The notes below the pieces were generated by a model, which was given only the letters and a program-made list of their open reading frames with translations, ran no database searches and was not told where the DNA came from. The position numbers and the translations under genes are program-made. DNA of 64,000 nucleotides from positions 10,410 to 74,409 of the forward strand of contig FR888054.1 in assembly GCA_000431335.1 (NCBI GenBank), in the 5' to 3' direction. Positions 195-8,885 of the stretch are shown piece after piece; the stretch's first letter is position 1, and every line of letters starts with the position of its first letter. The stretch is from Clostridium sp. CAG:343 (GTDB lineage Bacteria; Bacillota; Clostridia; TANB77; CAG-508).

Positions 195-1466
195 ATGAAA
201 AAAACAAGAAAAATCAATATAGTAAAAATACTTTTAGTTATAAGTATATTATTTATAATAGATTTATTAATCGTTATTAATTCGGTTCGAGCAGAAAGTT
301 TAAATTCAGCTAATATTTATTCAATAGGAGATTGCGGAAATTTATTAACTTATAAAGGAGTAATAGTAAAAGTAAGTTATGTTCAATACACTAAAGATAA
401 TGTTAATTATCCTGCTTATTGTTTAGATAAAACAAAACCAGGAGCAGAAACTAGCCCATATGATGTGTCAATCAATAGTGCAATTAAGGATGTTGGTCTA
501 TGGAGGAGAATTATTAATGGATATCCATATAAAACAATAAAGGAATTAGGAGTAGAAAATAAGGAAGAAGCTTTTACAGCTACAAAACAAGCAATATACT
601 GTTATATTCATGGAAATAATCCAGAAGATTATGGAGCAATTGGTTCGGCTGGACAAAGAACACTAAATGCTATGAAAAATATAATTAATAATGCACAAAA
701 TTCTAATGAAACTCAAATTTCAAATACAATTACAATAAATAGAATAGATAGTGAATGGAAACAAGACAGTATAGATAAAAGTTATGCATATAAAGTTTAT
801 AGTGTACAGGCAGGTAGTAGTATAATGAATTATACTGTTGATGTAACAAAGGAAGGTTCAGAAAGTATAGGAGGAATAAAAATAACAGATGAAAACAATC
901 AAGAAAAATCGGAGTTTAGTCCAAATGAAAATTTTAAAATTTTAATTCCAATAAATAATATGAAAGAAACTGGAACTTTATATATAAAAGTAAAATCTAA
1001 AGTAGAAACAAAACCAGTATTATATGGAACTGCACCAAGTAGTTCATATCAAGATTATGCTTTAACAGTAGCAACATATGAAGATGGAATAGGTAATATT
1101 AAAGATGAATATAATAAAAATGAAACTAAAATCATTATTATAAAAAAAGATCAAGATGATGGAAAAGTACTAGAGGGCATAGAGTTTCAATTGCTAAATG
1201 ATAAAAAAGAAGTAATATATGCAGATTTAAAAACTGATTCAGATGGAAAAATAGTAATAGAAAATTTAGTTCCAGGTAATTATTATATAAAAGAAATAAA
1301 AACAATAGATGGTTATGAATTATATGAATATCCAATTCAAGTAGAAGTTGGATTTAATCAAGAGGTAAGTGTGACAGTTAATAATAAAAAAGAAGAAAAG
1401 CCACAAATAATTACTAATAAAACTGCGAGTAAAGAAATAAAAAGATTACCTGTTACAGGAATGTAA
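195..1466 (+). CDS. secreted surface adhesin/pilin-like protein: thioester-like domain, SpaA/CnaB-type domain and LPVTG motif
   Basis: N-terminal TM/signal ILLVISILFIIDLLIVINSVRA. YCLD ... TKQAIY resembles the Cys/Gln thioester-domain pair. KKDQDDGKVLEGIEFQL..DSDGKIVIENLVPGNYYIKEIKTIDGYEL is a SpaA/CnaB-type fold. The protein ends KRLPVTGM-stop. Confidence 0.65.
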   Translation: MKKTRKINIVKILLVISILFIIDLLIVINSVRAESLNSANIYSIGDCGNLLTYKGVIVKVSYVQYTKDNVNYPAYCLDKTKPGAETSPYDVSINSAIKDVGLWRRIINGYPYKTIKELGVENKEEAFTATKQAIYCYIHGNNPEDYGAIGSAGQRTLNAMKNIINNAQNSNETQISNTITINRIDSEWKQDSIDKSYAYKVYSVQAGSSIMNYTVDVTKEGSESIGGIKITDENNQEKSEFSPNENFKILIPINNMKETGTLYIKVKSKVETKPVLYGTAPSSSYQDYALTVATYEDGIGNIKDEYNKNETKIIIIKKDQDDGKVLEGIEFQLLNDKKEVIYADLKTDSDGKIVIENLVPGNYYIKEIKTIDGYELYEYPIQVEVGFNQEVSVTVNNKKEEKPQIITNKTASKEIKRLPVTGM

Positions 1467-1472
1467 TGAGAT

Positions 1473-1516
1473 AAGCAACTAGTATATAATATACATTGTA
1501 TTAGTTGCTTTTTATT
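1473..1516 (+). terminator. rho-independent terminator of the adhesin gene
   Basis: AAGCAACTA (1473-1481) pairs with TAGTTGCTT (1502-1510), followed by TTTATTT. Confidence 0.6.
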
Positions 1517-1545: not shown

Positions 1546-1573
1546 TTGACTTTTGCATAAAAAACATTACAAT
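1546..1573 (+). promoter_or_regulatory. sigma-A-type promoter firing into the foldback
   Basis: TTGACT (1546-1551), a 16-nt spacer, then TACAAT (1568-1573). No CDS with a ribosome-binding site follows. Confidence 0.45.
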
Positions 1574-2034
1574 TCAGTAAGAAATGATTATGATGTCTAA
1601 GTTTTGGCTCACTATAACACTTAAATTTTATTTAATGACGTTTGATTGGAATGAAAAATAGAAAATCTTTTACAAGAAAATGAGTAATGTTCACGGGCAA
1701 AATTATTATTATATAAATTTAAACTTTTCTCGGTTCAATACATAATCTAAGAATTTCTAAAATAATTTAATGGCACCCTTTCACTTAGTCCGAGCTAAAG
1801 CTCGACGCGAACATTTTCCATTAAATTATTTAAGAAATTCTAAGATTACTCCAATCACATTTGAAAAGTTTAAATTTATATAATAATAATTTTGAGTCTG
1901 AGTGAAAGCGCCTTGTTTTCTTGTATTAGATTTCCTTTTTGAATGAAATGAAAAGACATTAAATAAAATCTAAGTGTTATAGTTGGAGCCAATGCTTGGA
2001 CATCATAAGCATTTTTTACTGACCTGTAACAGTA
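1564..2034. repeat. roughly 470-bp imperfect foldback (long inverted repeat); candidate hairpin RNA or MITE-like element
   Basis: 1699-1729 pairs 31/31 with 1863-1893. 1743-1773 pairs 29/31 with 1818-1848. 1564-1645 pairs with 1950-2033 at roughly 85%. Apical stem-loop CGAGC-TAAA-GCTCG at 1791-1804. A T6 run at 2035-2040 follows. Confidence 0.85.
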
Positions 2035-2070
2035 TTTTTTCAAACCTACTTTTCAAAAAACAAACTTTCT

Positions 2071-2078
2071 TGTATAAT
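2071..2078 (+). promoter_or_regulatory. extended -10 (TGTATAAT) for the transglycosylase gene
   Basis: TGTATAAT lies 23 nt upstream of ATG 2101, with RBS AAAGGGTG between them. Confidence 0.35.
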
Positions 2079-2100
2079 ATAAAAAAAGGGTGATAAATTT

Positions 2101-2787
2101 ATGAAAATACTAAAAAAATTATTAATTTTCTTATTAATTTTACTACTACTTGTTAGTACTTTTATTTTTCTAATTGGTTTTGGATATTACTCTAAAACCC
2201 TCCATGAGAAATCTCTAACATCTCGTGTAGAAGAAGTAACTAGTAAAAAACATTTTGTTCCTTTTGAACAATTACCTAAAAATTATATTAACGCAGTAAT
2301 TGCTGTAGAAGATCATCGCTACTATGAGCATGGACCTGTTGATTTTATTGGTATTGCTAGGGCCTTGTATACTAATATTAGAGATGGAGAATTTGATGAA
2401 GGTGGAAGTACTATTACACAACAAGTTGCAAAAAATATTATTTTTAATCAAGATAAAACTTTAATTAGAAAAATAGGTGAAATTTTTGGTGCTTACGATT
2501 TAGAAAAAAATTACTCTAAAGATGAAATACTAGCATTATATGTAAATTCAAATTATTTTGGTGATGGTTATTATGGAATCTATGCTGCAAGTATGGGATA
2601 TTATAAAAAAGAACCCAAAGATTTAACTTTAGAAGAAGCTTCTATGTTAGCTGGAATTCCAAATGCTCCTTCTGTTTATTCACCTTCTATAAATCCTGAC
2701 TTAGCCAAAAAAAGGCAATCTCATGTTTTAAATGCAATGGTTCAGTATGGATACATTACAGAAGAAGAAGCTAATTCAATTAAATAG
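2101..2787 (+). CDS. monofunctional peptidoglycan glycosyltransferase (GT51)
   Basis: N-terminal TM segment. EDHRYYEHGPVDFIGIARA and GGSTITQQVAKN are the GT51 transglycosylase motifs. At 228 aa there is no transpeptidase domain. Confidence 0.85.
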   Translation: MKILKKLLIFLLILLLLVSTFIFLIGFGYYSKTLHEKSLTSRVEEVTSKKHFVPFEQLPKNYINAVIAVEDHRYYEHGPVDFIGIARALYTNIRDGEFDEGGSTITQQVAKNIIFNQDKTLIRKIGEIFGAYDLEKNYSKDEILALYVNSNYFGDGYYGIYAASMGYYKKEPKDLTLEEASMLAGIPNAPSVYSPSINPDLAKKRQSHVLNAMVQYGYITEEEANSIK

Positions 2788-2792
2788 TAAAT

Positions 2793-2828
2793 AAAAGTCA
2801 TAAAAAATTTTTTATGACTTTTTTATTT
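2793..2828 (+). terminator. rho-independent terminator
   Basis: AAAAGTCATAAAAAA / TTTTTTATGACTTTT perfect palindrome (2793-2822), followed by a T run. Confidence 0.6.
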
Positions 2829-2862
2829 TCTGTTACATATATTTAAAATAAGGAGTTTAATT

Positions 2863-3645
2863 ATGAGAATTTTAATTTTTAATAAAAAGTTTTTAATTTT
2901 TATGTGCATTATATTTTTTATAATATTTTCTATGTATTTCTATTATCATAATCCATTTTCCATGGCTGTTGAGCTTTCAATAAACAATGGCTTGGATGAT
3001 AACGCAAAAGAAAAAATAATGTCTTTAACAAAAGGAACTGAAAAAATTGCATATTTAACTTTTGATGATGGACCTACTCTTAGAGCTACGCCTAGGGTAT
3101 TAGATATACTTAAAGAAGAAAATGTAAAAGCTTCATTTTTTGTTATTGGAAAGTATGTAGATAAACATCCTGAACTAGTAAAGAGAGCTTATGATGATGG
3201 TCATTATATTGCAAATCATGGTTATGATCATAGTAATAAAAAATTATACGAGAGTAATGCTAGTTTTATTAATGAAGTAAAAAAAACTGATATCGAAATT
3301 GGAAAAGCGATTGGCATTGATAATTATTGTTCTCATATATTTCGATTTCCAAATGGTTATATGTCTCCAAACAATAAATCTCAAAAAAAGGTAAGTGCCA
3401 AGCTTCTTCAAGAAATGGATTATGTATATGTAGATTGGAATTGTTTAAATAATGATTCTGTAAAAAAATATTCTAATTATCAATTATTAAACAATCTTAA
3501 AAAATCTGCTAAAAACAAAGGAACTTTAGTTGTTCTAATGCATGATACTTCTGATGTTAATGATACTCCTAGTATTTTAAAAGATTCCATAGATTATTTA
3601 AAAAGTGAAGGTTATGTATTTCAAAATTTTTATGATTTATTGTAA
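2863..3645 (+). CDS. polysaccharide deacetylase (CE4, NodB homology domain)
   Basis: N-terminal TM segment. YLTFDDGP and ANHGYDH motifs are typical of CE4 deacetylases. Confidence 0.8.
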   Translation: MRILIFNKKFLIFMCIIFFIIFSMYFYYHNPFSMAVELSINNGLDDNAKEKIMSLTKGTEKIAYLTFDDGPTLRATPRVLDILKEENVKASFFVIGKYVDKHPELVKRAYDDGHYIANHGYDHSNKKLYESNASFINEVKKTDIEIGKAIGIDNYCSHIFRFPNGYMSPNNKSQKKVSAKLLQEMDYVYVDWNCLNNDSVKKYSNYQLLNNLKKSAKNKGTLVVLMHDTSDVNDTPSILKDSIDYLKSEGYVFQNFYDLL

Positions 3646-3699: not shown

Positions 3700-4188
3700 T
3701 TACATAGTCACCTCAATTTGATATATATTTCTGCTTCCATCTAATTTAATATAATTTTCTATCTTCTCGCCATTTAATTTTATCTCAGAAACTCCCATAT
3801 TCTTTCCATTTGTATTTTTTATTCTAATATTATAAATACTTTCTTTCCATTTGTATTGAATTTGGTATTCTTTCCATTCTTTTGGAATGCATGGTTCTAT
3901 CTTCATATATCCCTTTTCTATTTTTAATCCTAATATATATTCAATTCCCGCTTTATAATACCAGCTACTTGACCCTGTATACCATGTCCAACCACCTTGT
4001 CCTGCTAAATTACTTGCTCCATAAACATCTGCAGCAATAACATATGGCTCTACTTTATACTTTTTACTTGCTTCTTTTGTCCTTGCATGTTCAATCGGAT
4101 TTATCATTCTGTATAGTTCTGTTGCTTTATCTCCAAATCCTAACATTGTCTCTGCTATAATAACCCATATTGCACTATGTGTGTATTG
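3700..4188 (-). CDS. 3' segment (163 codons) of the interrupted GH94/cyclic-beta-1,2-glucan-synthase-like gene
   Basis: The frame of ORF 3700-4146 stays open upstream to 4188 and reads QYTHSAIWVIIAETMLGFGDK...GGWTWYTGSSSWYY. This continues the ...VRENGGQYTH end of the ORF at 11225-18940. Confidence 0.8.
   Translation of the reverse strand, partial: QYTHSAIWVIIAETMLGFGDKATELYRMINPIEHARTKEASKKYKVEPYVIAADVYGASNLAGQGGWTWYTGSSSWYYKAGIEYILGLKIEKGYMKIEPCIPKEWKEYQIQYKWKESIYNIRIKNTNGKNMGVSEIKLNGEKIENYIKLDGSRNIYQIEVTM
4177..4188. repeat. att core copy 1 (ATGTGTGTATTG)
   Basis: Identical to 11240-11251. Encodes QYTH on the minus strand. Confidence 0.8.
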
Positions 4189-4206
4189 TTGTTGTGGACA
4201 TTTTTT

Positions 4207-5836
4207 CTATCCTACTTTTTTCTCATATTCTTTTCTAGCACATATAAAATTATTATTTAAATCTTGTAATGGTTTAAAATTGAAATAAATATCAACTTGC
4301 TTGTCGCTATGAATTTCAATTTTTTCTATAAATTCTCTAATTATTTCTTTTGTTGGTTTTTCCATATTAAGAAACTCTTCTATCAAATTATCTAATCTAT
4401 TATCATTTTTTGTCTTATCACTTTCTCCTGATAGCTCTTGTTCAAGCTCTTTGATGTTTTGTTCATATCCTCTAACCAATTCTTTTATTCTATTTGCATT
4501 TTTCATATATTCCTCAAGTGTTATAATTCCTGCCAGTCTATCATCATACATTACTTCCAACTTTCTAGTTTCACTCTCTACCTGCTGTTTAAAAGATTCT
4601 ATTTGTTTTTTTATATCTATTTCTTTTGATTGTTTTGTTTTTGTTTGTTTTGCAATTTCTTCTAGTTTTTTTGTATTGGTATATTCTTTACAAACTTCTC
4701 TTAAAACTTCTAGCATTTGTTCTTCAAAAACTTGATAATTAAAATTGTGTGGTGAACATACATCAAATTTTCCAAACCTTCCATATCTTTGGCATCTACC
4801 ATAAATATTTCCGTTTTTATCTGGACTTCTTATTCCAATATATCCTTTGCAATCATAACATCTAAGTAATCCCTTAAATAAGTAATCATTTTGAACTACT
4901 CTTGAGCCTTTAGTTGCTTGAATTACTTTTTTTGCTCTTTCAAAATCCTCTTTACTTATAATAGCTTCGTGCATATTTTCTACTTTTATCCAATCTTCTT
5001 CTGGTAAATCTATAAATTTTTTAGATTTAAAACTTACTTTCTTTCTTTTTCCTTGTATAACTGTTCCTGTATAAATTTCATTTGAAAGAATAAATCTTAC
5101 TGTAGATTGTTGCCATAGTCCATAAGTTAAAGACTTTGTTCCCCTTTTTCTCTTGTTATAATCTGATGGAATTGGAATCTTCTTTTTACTTAAATAATCT
5201 GCTATTTGCATTGTACCAAACCCTGCTAAATATTTTTCATATATTAGTTTTACTACATTTGCTGCTTCTTCATCTATTATTAAATGGTATTTATTTTCTG
5301 GATCTTTTTTATAGCCATAAGGTGCTGTTCCTAAATATTCTCCAAGATTTCTTTTTGATTGTAATACACTATTTATTTTCTTTGATGTATCTTTTGCATA
5401 CATTTCATTTAATATTGATTTAAATGGTGCTATATCATTGTTTGATGTATTATAAGCCGTATCTATATTGTCTAATATTGCAACAAACCTTACTTCATGT
5501 TCTGGAAAATATGTTTCAATGTATAATCCTGATTGCACATAATTTCTACCTAGTCTTGATAAGTCTTTCGTGACGATCATATTGATTTTACCGAGTTTCA
5601 ATATCTGCTATCATTCTATTAAATGCAGGTCTATCAAAACTTGTACCACTTACACCATCATCAACGTATTCTGATATAAAGTTTAGTTTGTTTTCTTTGA
5701 TATATTGCATTAGCAAAGTTCTTTGGTTTCCAATACTTTCACTTTCTTGATATTTTTCTTTTTCTTCATCTTCTCTTGAAAGCCTTATATATATGCCTAC
5801 TTTATAATCAATATTATTCATTATTGTATAGCTCAC
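4207..5836 (-). CDS. large serine recombinase; reading frame requires a +1 shift at CGG 5593-5591
   Basis: The resolvase N-domain (YIRLSREDE..., ..DDGVSGTSFDRPAFNRMIADIET) continues as GKINMIVTKDLSRLGRN plus recombinase/zinc-ribbon/coiled-coil regions in the +1 frame. The span is 3n+1. Likely GTG start at 5836 after AAGGAGG. Confidence 0.8.
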
Positions 5837-5934
5837 ATTTACCTCCTTACTTGCTATGTAAAGATAATGAGATAATATTGATACTCTTTGCAAGTATTAT
5901 AACATATTATCTCACTAAATACCATTATTTTACT

Positions 5935-6072
5935 TTAATTTTTCTTCAGACAATAATTTCCAAATGCTCTTTCTATTATTTTCTCTAATGCTTCTCCTTT
6001 TTCATTAAATATAATATTTATTTTAAAATTCTTTTTCTTTTTATACTTTTTCTTTTCTTTTCTTTCTTGCAT
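5935..6072 (-). CDS. small basic protein (45 aa) upstream of the recombinase
   Basis: ATG preceded by AAAGGAGTG. MQERKEKKKYKKKKNFKINIIFNEKGEALEKIIERAFGNYCLKKN. Below the ORF-track size cutoff. End coordinates are +/-1. Confidence 0.3.
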   Translation of the reverse strand: MQERKEKKKYKKKKNFKINIIFNEKGEALEKIIERAFGNYCLKKN

Positions 6073-6497
6073 AAATCTCACTCCTTTAGTTGTAATTATT
6101 TCCAATTTTTCCTTACTTTATACAATACACTCTGCTATGTCTTATCAATTTAAAAACCACAAGTGGATTTAATCCCATATGAGATTTGCCCTCATTCCTC
6201 TTTTTAGAGAATCGCCCCTTCACATCACGTTAGCCAGACGAAAGTTTCATTATCTGTGCTTGTAGTTTGCTATTCAATTTTCAATGTGCTTTACTGTGAT
6301 AGAAAATAATTATTTACACGTGCTATTTTCTACTTGCGATTTTTATTATAAGAGCCTTAAAAAGTGTTGTAAATACTTTTTTGCAAGTCTATAGATAAAT
6401 TAAAAATTGAAATAGCTATATTCTATTTTTGAAAATGGAGGAAACATTGATATGATAACTAATTTTACACTTAAGAATAATAAAATTGTAATAAAAA

Positions 6498-7498
6498 ATG
6501 ATAGGAGAATTTTTTGGTGCTACTCATGATTTTGAATATAATATTGGAGATAAATTATATGAATTTGCAATAATGAGTTATGAATATTTTGATAAATTGA
6601 AAACAATGTATACTGGGTTAATAGAACTTGTATGTTCTGCTAAAGAAGCAAATATTATGGATGAAAAATTAGATTGTTTCTTTAAAATGTTTCAAATAGT
6701 TAGAGCGTGTTTAGAATTTTCGCCATATACTCATTTTTATACACAAGTCTTAATAGATATAATAGAAAATCTTATAAAAAAAAGACTGATTTAAAAAAGC
6801 GATTAGAATTGATAAGTAAATATTCTAATAACTCTATTGTAAAAAATTTAAGTACAGAAGAAAGACTATATTTATATGAGGCAAAAAGATTTTTTGACAT
6901 ACACTATCTTAATACTAATCCAGCACATGCAATCTTTTTAGATACCAAATTTAAAACAAAATATGTCTGTAATAAAGGATTATCACTACAAGAGAGAAGA
7001 TTAGATGTAGAAGATGTAGTTAAATTAATCAAAGAAAAACATATTGCTGTAGAAGAAGTCTATGAATTAGAAAGTTCTGAAGAACAAATTAGATTTGAGT
7101 TATTTAAAGTAATTCAAAATAATTTTACTATCAATAAATGTGAAAATTGTGGAAAATTATTTATTCCTGTAACCAGTAGTAAAAATCCAAATCAAAAAGG
7201 AAAAAATGGCCAAAAATATTGCAATAGCTTATATTTAGATACTGGAAAAACTTGTAAAGAAATTGGAGCATTAAATAAACAAAAAGAAAAAGTTCAAAAT
7301 AGTTCAATTTTAAAGGAATACAACAGAGAATATAAAAGAATGCATGGTTTACACTATAATCATACGAAAGAATTTAAAGAAAAGCAATTCAAAGAATGGT
7401 CTGAAAAAGCTAGAGAATTAAGAGATACTTATACTAATGAACAAATAGAAGATTTTAAAATAGAATTGAAGAAATTAAGTGATTTGTATTGGAAATAG
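6498..7498 (+). CDS. element-encoded Cys4 zinc-ribbon protein; two overlapping frames joined at an A8 run (6776-6783)
   Basis: ORF 6498-6794 and ORF 6707-7498 overlap. A -1 shift on ATA-AAA-AAA-G fuses ...IIENLIKKK to TDLKKRLELISKY.... CENCGKLF...CNSLYLDTGKTC is a zinc ribbon. A well-placed RBS/ATG at 6452 is in yet another frame (T6 run at 6510-6515). Confidence 0.45.
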
Positions 7499-7597
7499 AA
7501 AAGTATACATATATTCAATTTTTCAATTTACTAATACATATACTTTTATAATTCATATTTTAACACTCCAACTCCCTATTAAAAAATATATAAAAAA

Positions 7598-7634
7598 GAA
7601 GGAGGAACTCTGAAATTTCAAAGTTCTCTCCTTC
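7598..7634. terminator. bidirectional terminator between convergent genes
   Basis: GAAGGAGGAACTCTGAAATTTCAAAGTTCTCTCCTTC is an imperfect hairpin. Confidence 0.5.
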
Positions 7635-7680
7635 TATCTGTGTTTGGAAACAAATTAGGATAGTTTTACAGTGGTCAGTG

Positions 7681-8586
7681 CTACTTAATATAAAGCGTGG
7701 CACGAAAACCAGTGAAGCTATAGATGATAACATGATTGCCGAAATAGCGACAGGCGACAGGATAATTGTTCCCACTAAAGTTGCAATTGCCACCACGGAT
7801 AACACGACGTGAACTTTCGTTCTGTTCTTGTGTCCATTCATCTACATTACCTGCAAAGTCGTAGATGTTATTAGCACACCATTCTTCTCTGCTTCCTGTT
7901 TCAACTACTTTCTTCGGAGAATTCTCTGTATTCCAATGGTTGCCCCATTCAGTAGAGTCCTCTACAATTTCAGTAAGAGTTTTAACTTCCGTTTTGATAA
8001 ACCATTCCAATACCGAATCATATTCTGCACCAAAAGTCAGATGACTCTTAACTGCTTCATTATCTTCGATAGTGGATGCAACCTTCTTGGCATCATCAAA
8101 ATTGATGTTTACCCACGGCATAACGCCTTTTACCGACTGTGGTTTTCCTTCTGAACTTTTGGAAATGTTATAACGAGAAATATAAAATCCCCCATATTTC
8201 TTAACACTTTCAAGTTGCATGGCAAGTTCGCCCGTCAATGTTTCATGAAATTCGCCTTCTGAGAATTCATTGTTCCGATAATTTCTTCTTCCAAACTTCT
8301 CGGCAAATGAAACTCCATCAAGTGTTCCATTAGAATCAAGGCTCCAAACAGGAATCCAAACGAACTGACTGCCATCAGAATCTCTTTCAATTACAAAGCC
8401 GTTCTTCCAGTCTCCGCAAACATACTTGTATCCCTCCGGTATCGGCGGATTTGCATAATTTTCAGAATAAACATTAGCTGTAGCAATGTTCAGAGCTCTG
8501 ATAATTAACTCTCCACTTGTTCCCTCTGAGACTTCAAAGGTTATACCCTTTTCTGCCTCAAGCACAAATTTTTCATACCGTTTCAT
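7681..8586 (-). CDS. FGE/SUMF1-family (formylglycine-generating-enzyme-like) domain protein
   Basis: The C-terminal ...WTQEQNESSRRVIRGGNCNFSGNNYPVACRYF... matches the FGE-sulfatase fold signature (R-V-x-R-G-G). G+C is visibly higher than its surroundings. RBS is AAGGAGGAA. Confidence 0.6.
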   Translation of the reverse strand: MKRYEKFVLEAEKGITFEVSEGTSGELIIRALNIATANVYSENYANPPIPEGYKYVCGDWKNGFVIERDSDGSQFVWIPVWSLDSNGTLDGVSFAEKFGRRNYRNNEFSEGEFHETLTGELAMQLESVKKYGGFYISRYNISKSSEGKPQSVKGVMPWVNINFDDAKKVASTIEDNEAVKSHLTFGAEYDSVLEWFIKTEVKTLTEIVEDSTEWGNHWNTENSPKKVVETGSREEWCANNIYDFAGNVDEWTQEQNESSRRVIRGGNCNFSGNNYPVACRYFGNHVIIYSFTGFRATLYIK

Positions 8587-8690
8587 AGTTTATTCCTCCT
8601 TAAGTGATAATTTTATAACGGTTTCAACATGGCTATTGCCATTATGTTAATAATACCACATTTCTTGCATTTTGTAAAATTTGAATTTAT

Positions 8691-8885
8691 TTAATTTACA
8701 TATTTAATTCTTCCTTTTTTATTTTCATAACTATATTGTGGCTCTTTTAATGAATAATTTAAATATGATTTTTCTTTATCTATATTATTATTTGAATAAT
8801 TTCTGTTTCTTCTTTCGTTGTGTCTAAACATTCCTTTTAGATTTTCTCTTTTGTATTTTGTGTTTCTTATTATTGCATAACTCAT
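8691..8885 (-). pseudogene. MobV-family relaxase (Pre/Mob), N-terminal 64-aa remnant
   Basis: MSYAIIRNTKYKRENLKGMFRHNERRN..NIDKEKSYLNY matches the MobV N-terminus, including the HxxR/HNER motif. Full-length relaxases are several-fold longer. Confidence 0.65.

Follow-up and report, generated by a model that had tools for sequence, protein, structure and literature searches.

Short non-autonomous repeats with stem-loop potential are known from AT-rich bacterial genomes, including RUP, BOX, and SPRITE in Streptococcus pneumoniae and bcr1 in the Bacillus cereus group. Correia and ERIC elements are approximately 100-160 bp in length, and Correia elements duplicate the dinucleotide TA. Such repeats can themselves be targets, as the IS3-family elements IS1397 and ISKpn1 insert specifically into REP or palindromic units. 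Both the Correia elements (CREE or nemis) of Neisseria and the ERIC/IRU elements of enterobacteria are non-coding, dispersed, and intergenic, with near-palindromic sequences and size variants. Correia transcripts form hairpins that are cut by RNase III, in-place inversion of Correia elements is possible, and ERIC elements alter RNase E access (PMC10969869). Among eukaryotes, Foldback and Galileo (P superfamily) elements consist mostly of very long inverted arms. Chromosomal inversions have been attributed to ectopic recombination between Galileo copies (PMC4168063).

The window analyzed here, a 64-kb stretch of DNA from Clostridium sp. CAG:343, contains at positions 1566-2030 what is very probably one 465-bp copy of a non-coding, palindromic (foldback) MITE that is scattered over at least 12 sites. 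The unit resembles Correia and ERIC elements in being non-coding, dispersed, intergenic, hairpin-forming, and near-palindromic over its full length, as well as in its size variants and an in-place flip. However, it differs from them in its length of 465 bp, an 8-bp duplication, and an unrelated sequence. RUP, BOX, SPRITE, and bcr1 are much shorter than the unit, possess other termini and target duplications, and have no sequence in common with it. In architecture and recombinogenic effect the unit is also similar to Foldback and Galileo, but these belong to another domain of life and Galileo has a known transposase; the likeness is an analogy only. The unit shares its sequence with none of the compared systems and represents a new family of foldback MITE, a kind of element already known. 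The features of the locus are collected in Table 1.

Table 1. Features of the foldback repeat and its flanks, in window coordinates
Feature	Position	Strand	Remarks
Terminator-like hairpin with a trailing T-run, adhesin gene	1473-1510	+	Inverted repeat with 12-nt arms at 92%; not called in the scan demanding at least 3 G-C pairs
Promoter-like TTGACT-16-TACAAT	1546-1573	+	10/12 matches; -35 in adhesin-locus flank, -10 in element terminus
TAAAAAAC, left half of the adhesin-locus 8-bp duplication	1558-1565	.	Partner absent from the window
Repeat unit, foldback MITE copy	1566-2030	.	Homology to copies at other loci begins and ends here; folding z -17.7
Left terminal inverted repeat	1566-1596	+	Family consensus GTTACAGTTCAGTAAGAAATGATTATGATGT; window copy ATTACAATTCAG...
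Interior of the foldback	1657-1946	.	97% identity between loci; missing from short allelic forms
Apical GC stem-loop CGAGC-TAAA-GCTCG	1791-1804	.	5 pairs
Crossover interval	1878-1933	.	Switch of diagnostic positions
GTG (CAC on the other strand), trinucleotide duplicated on IS3-family insertion	1902-1904	.	L024, L127, L052
Right terminal inverted repeat	2000-2030	-	Ends ...CTGACCTGTAAC
AGTATTTT, right half of the dapF/transglycosylase-locus 8-bp duplication	2031-2038	.	On both sides in L001 and L099
Promoter-like TTTTCA-17-TATAAT beyond the element, 5' of the transglycosylase gene	2050-2078	+	Invariant in all aligned strains

A long imperfect inverted repeat had been described here in a sequence-only reading of the window, and an inverted-repeat search of the window located its arms where that reading had placed them. 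Pairing was complete between 1698-1729 and 1863-1894 (32/32), and it reached 94% between 1743-1773 and 1818-1848, 84% between 1656-1680 and 1916-1940, 83% between 1611-1658 and 1936-1983, and 78% between 1552-1610 and 1986-2044. When folded as RNA, the foldback stretch (approximately 465-500 nt) had nearly equal minimum free energies on the two strands, at -186.3 kcal/mol for the + strand and -182.7 kcal/mol for the - strand, versus a mean of -81 +/- 6 for shuffled controls (z of -17.7 and -18.3, respectively). As DNA, 1566-2030 folded at -113.7 versus -37.3 for shuffles. The folding energies of both RNA and DNA are far outside chance. The finer details of the sequence-only reading were likewise all present as read, namely the apical stem-loop, the pair formed by AGTGAAAG at 1901-1908 and CTTTCACT at 1778-1785, a T6 run, and a 25-codon ORF. 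The apical stem-loop varied little among 22 copies: one of its five pairs changed from G-C to G-U in a single copy, and the other four were invariant.

Units of 463-468 bp with the termini GTTACAG...CTGTAAC were found at many other sites in the species. They are small and non-coding, their sole ORF being unconserved, and they carry terminal inverted repeats (GTTACAGTTCAGTAAG...CTTACTGAACTGTAAC) that belong to arms pairing over the full length. The consensus of the termini, derived from an alignment of approximately 170 arm ends among the matches listed, has two matches in the window versus zero expected by chance. Target-site duplications were of a fixed length of 8 bp, with 8/8 identity at three independent native sites and 6-7/8 elsewhere. 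At the adhesin locus, TAAAAAAC is present on both sides at 8/8 in L013, L018, and L019 (L numbers designate the loci fetched for comparison), and at the dapF/transglycosylase locus, AGTATTTT is present on both sides at 8/8 in L001 and L099. At a ddl-adjacent site, the duplication ATATTTTT was found at 8/8 in L052 and at 7/8 in L046 and L116. In addition, GACACATA forms an exact cross-contig pair, flanking the element on the left in L030 and on the right in L024, and AGG(T/A)ATAA was read by eye as a second cross-contig candidate; these octamers suggest two more putative duplication sites.

The order dapF, element, transglycosylase was observed in most of the assemblies encoding an identical transglycosylase (L001-L010), and the order adhesin, element, CNNM was observed in L011-L020, which represent assemblies encoding an identical adhesin. 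A single contig of 1.75 Mb in the metagenome-assembled genome GCA_025992265.1 carries both the adhesin-locus and the transglycosylase-locus copies, with approximately 1.2 Mb between them. When metagenomes were scanned with a 20-nt core of the arm, at least 105 stretches matched. Many of the matches listed were at contig ends, which is expected because the repeat breaks short-read assemblies. Among the matches listed, the DNA outside the approximately 170 element ends clustered into at least about 34 distinct flank junctions; hence, the unit occupies at least 12-15 genomic sites in the species. A palindromic MITE was one of the possibilities raised in the sequence-only reading, which had left copy number to a search, and it is borne out by these many dispersed copies and their 8-bp target-site duplications. 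A scan of genome contigs with a 24-nt core matched only two contigs, both from one MAG of the same species (labelled 'Sebaldella sp.'), and no second copy was detected within the 64-kb window by self-BLAST.

Judging from its diagnostic positions, the window copy appears to have been joined by a single crossover from two others, with the adhesin-locus copy supplying the left part and the transglycosylase-locus copy the right. Up to 1877, every diagnostic position is of the adhesin type (18/18), as are the left 312 nt as a whole, and from 1934 on every one is of the transglycosylase type (9/9). The octamers flanking the window copy match at only 1/8 positions because the copy is a hybrid of two insertions. 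Junctions with mismatched flanks were of at least five types. Besides the adhesin/transglycosylase junction of the window, these included a reciprocal-type CNNM/dapF junction in L081, an rpsB/transglycosylase junction in L007 (on a contig present in four samples), a HemN-like/transglycosylase junction in L131, and an adhesin/ddl junction in L139. The window's own junction was found in no other assembly among the flank-junction clusters compared, and it could be an assembly chimera formed at the repeat and not a real recombinant. In the two long contigs at hand, the parental loci are in direct orientation, and a single crossover between them would therefore split the chromosome. To account for the window arrangement, the parental loci must consequently have been ordered differently, more than one event must have taken place, or the assembly must have formed a chimera at the repeat.

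Several size classes of the unit were found at the same sites, with allelic forms of approximately 467, 374, 202, 172, and 165 bp plus a 19-nt remnant. The deletion junctions are at differing short direct repeats, which are AATGAAAA in L006 and TTTGA in L072, and interior deletions are also present in L116/L046; natural alleles can do without the interior. The L018 copy has kept its flanks unchanged, but the interior between them is inverted. The interior was also considered as a nested second MITE with its own 8-bp duplication, GAATGAAA, but this was rejected as the simplest reading and seems improbable, as the deletion junctions of L006 and L072 differ and no free-standing copy of the interior was found.

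An IS3-family insertion sequence of approximately 1.45 kb has entered the repeat in three loci (L024:2802-4248, L052:4360-5806, and L127:~1930-3386). The junction is identical in all three, with one orientation in L024 and L127 and the opposite orientation in L052. The element has an orfA of 170 aa (HTH_28), an orfB of 266 aa (rve), and the ends TGAAGTGAACCC...GGGTTCAGTACA. Three to four insertions suggest that it may insert target-specifically into the foldback repeat. Like IS1397 and ISKpn1, it enters a palindromic repeat; several copies of the repeat carry it at one defined trinucleotide, and it lies there in either orientation. The repeat targeted in this low-GC gut bacterium is a MITE of 465 bp, whereas IS1397 and ISKpn1 target the 35-bp REP.

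A comparison of 22 distinct copies identified 11 pairs with double changes, nine of them in the outermost helix; the corresponding numbers were 6.3 +/- 1.3 for shuffles and 0-4 for slid controls. Most of the broken pairs inspected were in copies with mismatched flanks, the window copy included. This shows that palindromic symmetry is maintained in the family, and such co-variation is equally expected from DNA-level homogenization (arm-to-arm conversion) and from selection on RNA; exchange between DNA copies can be observed directly in the family. According to the sequence-only reading, a plain MITE, which would refute the hairpin-RNA gene, would appear as many dispersed copies with target-site duplications and no compensatory substitutions; the dispersed copies and the duplications were found, but the arms co-vary. 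Identity between copies at different loci was 97% in the interior (alignment columns 49-420; window 1612-1981) versus 81-84% in the outer 48 nt of each arm (columns 1-48 and 421-469; window 1566-1611 and 1982-2030). An interior more conserved than the arm ends is the reverse of a simple amplification-burst model. The contrast likely results from gene conversion whose tracts seldom extend to the edges of the repeat, and the conservation of the interior could also reflect selection acting on it. The 97% identity, the invariant asymmetric loops, and the IS3-family insertion site are the observations behind a reading of the 290-bp interior as a selected module carried by the MITE, be it a structured RNA or protein-bound cruciform acting on neighboring genes, or a landing pad for other mobile DNA, which we regard as improbable.

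As a separate observation, the inner right arm (window 1873-1956, with AGTGAAAGCGCC in it) has an isolated relative at L001:3132-3215 that is 70-86 nt long and 75-77% identical. This relative sits between a gene of 184 aa and an aminotransferase gene, with no outer arms nearby, and was also found in L003-L006, L008-L010, L099, and others.

The sequence-only reading had also proposed that the foldback encodes a long hairpin RNA and is equipped with a promoter of its own and a trailing U-tract. As a multi-copy structured non-coding RNA gene, the unit would produce from its own promoter a long hairpin, processed by RNase III, that acts in trans or in cis. This is consistent with the extreme folding, the compensatory changes in the outer helix, the near-invariance among loci of the interior with its asymmetric loops, and the relative of the inner right arm outside any element in L001. 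However, the unit holds no conserved promoter or terminator. The promoter-like TTGACT-16-TACAAT of Table 1 is present as described, but its -35 hexamer (1546-1551) lies outside the unit and is missing where the element adjoins dapF or rpsB; its -10 hexamer is degraded in L018 at the same insertion site. Similarly, the T6 run at 2035-2040 exists but is in the transglycosylase-locus flank, and the CNNM flank lacks it. These two signals, the -35 hexamer and the T6 run, belong to two unrelated flanks outside the repeat unit and are found together only in the window hybrid. A scan of 750 bp of this AT-rich stretch identified 8 promoter-like sites, close to the chance level given by shuffles (5.6 +/- 2.7); with at least three G-C pairs demanded, it listed no terminator-like site. 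The G:U-compatible mismatches, approximately six per copy on each strand, are as strand-symmetric as the folding energies and provide no strand-specific signature. In addition, the target-site duplications indicate that the copies arose by transposition, and the interior is lost in natural alleles. With the gathering thresholds of Rfam 15, no RNA family was found in the whole 64-kb window, including no tRNA, riboswitch, or leader, and permissive E-values over 1400-2200 yielded only chance-level hairpin matches (E 0.1-6). We consider an RNA gene unlikely, and the hairpin RNA proposed earlier was abandoned on account of the flank-borne promoter and T-run, the strand symmetry, and the empty Rfam search.

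The remaining alternatives fared less well. The flip of the L018 interior between the same flanks, together with reports that Correia elements invert in place (PMC10969869), raised the possibility of an inverton, a DNA switch whose orientation controls the neighboring genes. A flip of the near-symmetric unit alters very little, though, its interior promoter-like sites are at chance level, no invertase or recombinase gene adjoins the copies, and recombination between the element's own long arms explains the inversion; a switch of this sort is very unlikely. A type I toxin-antitoxin-like module, with the 25-codon ORF of the left arm as the toxin, had likewise been entertained from the sequence. 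The ORF does start with ATG at 1584-1661, but through indels and substitutions its length ranges from 5 to 54 codons among the copies, it lacks a clear transmembrane stretch, and its mirror image in the other arm is a plain consequence of the DNA being a palindrome. No conserved small hydrophobic ORF was found among the copies, and the toxin reading, which we judge to have next to no chance of being correct, was dropped. Long and mutually similar arms could also arise by a recent local inverted duplication of neighboring sequence that is not mobile. Nothing else alike is present in the 64-kb window, however, and the occurrence of the unit at many unrelated loci with target-site duplications refutes this reading, whose probability we put close to nil. 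A foldback MITE remains the preferred reading.

An autonomous partner with matching termini was found neither in the window nor in the approximately 1 Mb of fetched loci, nor in phage, plasmid, or viral-contig collections. Matches to the terminal inverted repeats alone, which might have marked a parent transposase, numbered zero in all fetched loci (approximately 1 Mb), a distant-mode search of the phage and plasmid collections returned no match, and two viral-contig scans gave zero matches. A search for a clean empty site, including one through variant proteins, identified none, and revealed deletion remnants and further junctions with mismatched flanks instead. Copies with GTTACAG...CTGTAAC termini were inserted into AT-rich intergenic DNA with 8-bp target duplications, and in the history that we propose for the foldback MITE they were probably moved by a transposase supplied in trans. 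Once in place, they underwent recurrent interior deletion at short direct repeats and, at one site, a flip of the interior, and arm-to-arm and copy-to-copy gene conversion may have produced the co-variation of the arms. The family provides dispersed homology, junctions with mismatched flanks are found, and a single crossover between the adhesin-locus and transglycosylase-locus copies would have generated the window hybrid. The hybrid join places a promoter-like hexamer of one flank and a T-run of the other at its ends. A read-through transcript would form a duplex of approximately 230 bp, which, by analogy with Correia and ERIC elements, would likely be a substrate of RNase III.

The adhesin to the left (TED/SpaA, window 195-1466) lacks a hydrophobic tail; two stop codons come after its terminal LPVTGM. 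An identical 423-aa adhesin was found in 3338 blocks of the assembly collection; hence, this unusual sorting signal is typical of the species and is not caused by the foldback. The sequence-only reading was correct about this ending, but what it took for a truncated signal is normal for the species, and the element is inserted 91 bp past the adhesin stop codon, beyond the terminator-like hairpin. The adhesin 3' end contains CTGTTACAGGAATGTAA, which is similar to the element terminus; a link between the two was considered but the similarity was judged coincidental, as GTT-ACA-GGA are the usual AT-rich codons for the V-T-G of LPVTG, and it is also disfavored by the hairpin and the 91 bp between the stop codon and the element. 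The locus, with a sortase and an LPxTG-type TED/SpaA adhesin, is typical of Gram-positive bacteria, and the 'Sebaldella sp.' (Fusobacteriota) label of the MAG may be unreliable.

Elsewhere in the window, a GH94-family gene of 2710 aa, intact in L002, L009, L132, and L133, is split into two pieces (3700-4146 and 11225-18940, - strand), which match positions 1-340 and 350-420 of the Pfam GH94 profile. The insert of approximately 7 kb between them (~4147-11224) encodes a large serine recombinase, a DUF6076 protein, and a Mob_Pre relaxase. The serine recombinase (4207-5893, - strand) is represented by two overlapping ORFs, the first (101 aa) carrying the beginning of the Resolvase domain and the second (464 aa) the remainder, and it is also split in other strains (82 aa + 457 aa). 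Judging from these ORFs, it could be frameshifted and possibly immobilized.

The look of a promoter, a hairpin, and a terminator in the window came about by chance in a repeat copy of hybrid origin, and the locus should not be annotated as an RNA gene. The host is a widespread uncultured bacterium of the human and primate gut, for which single contigs of up to approximately 1.75 Mb are available. In this species, the foldback family marks metagenome-assembly breaks and gene-order differences between assemblies, and the repeat matters for judging assemblies and strain-level structural variation. The family also represents a natural case of palindrome dynamics, with interior deletion, flipping, and arm co-variation, and it hints at a target-specific IS3-family element.
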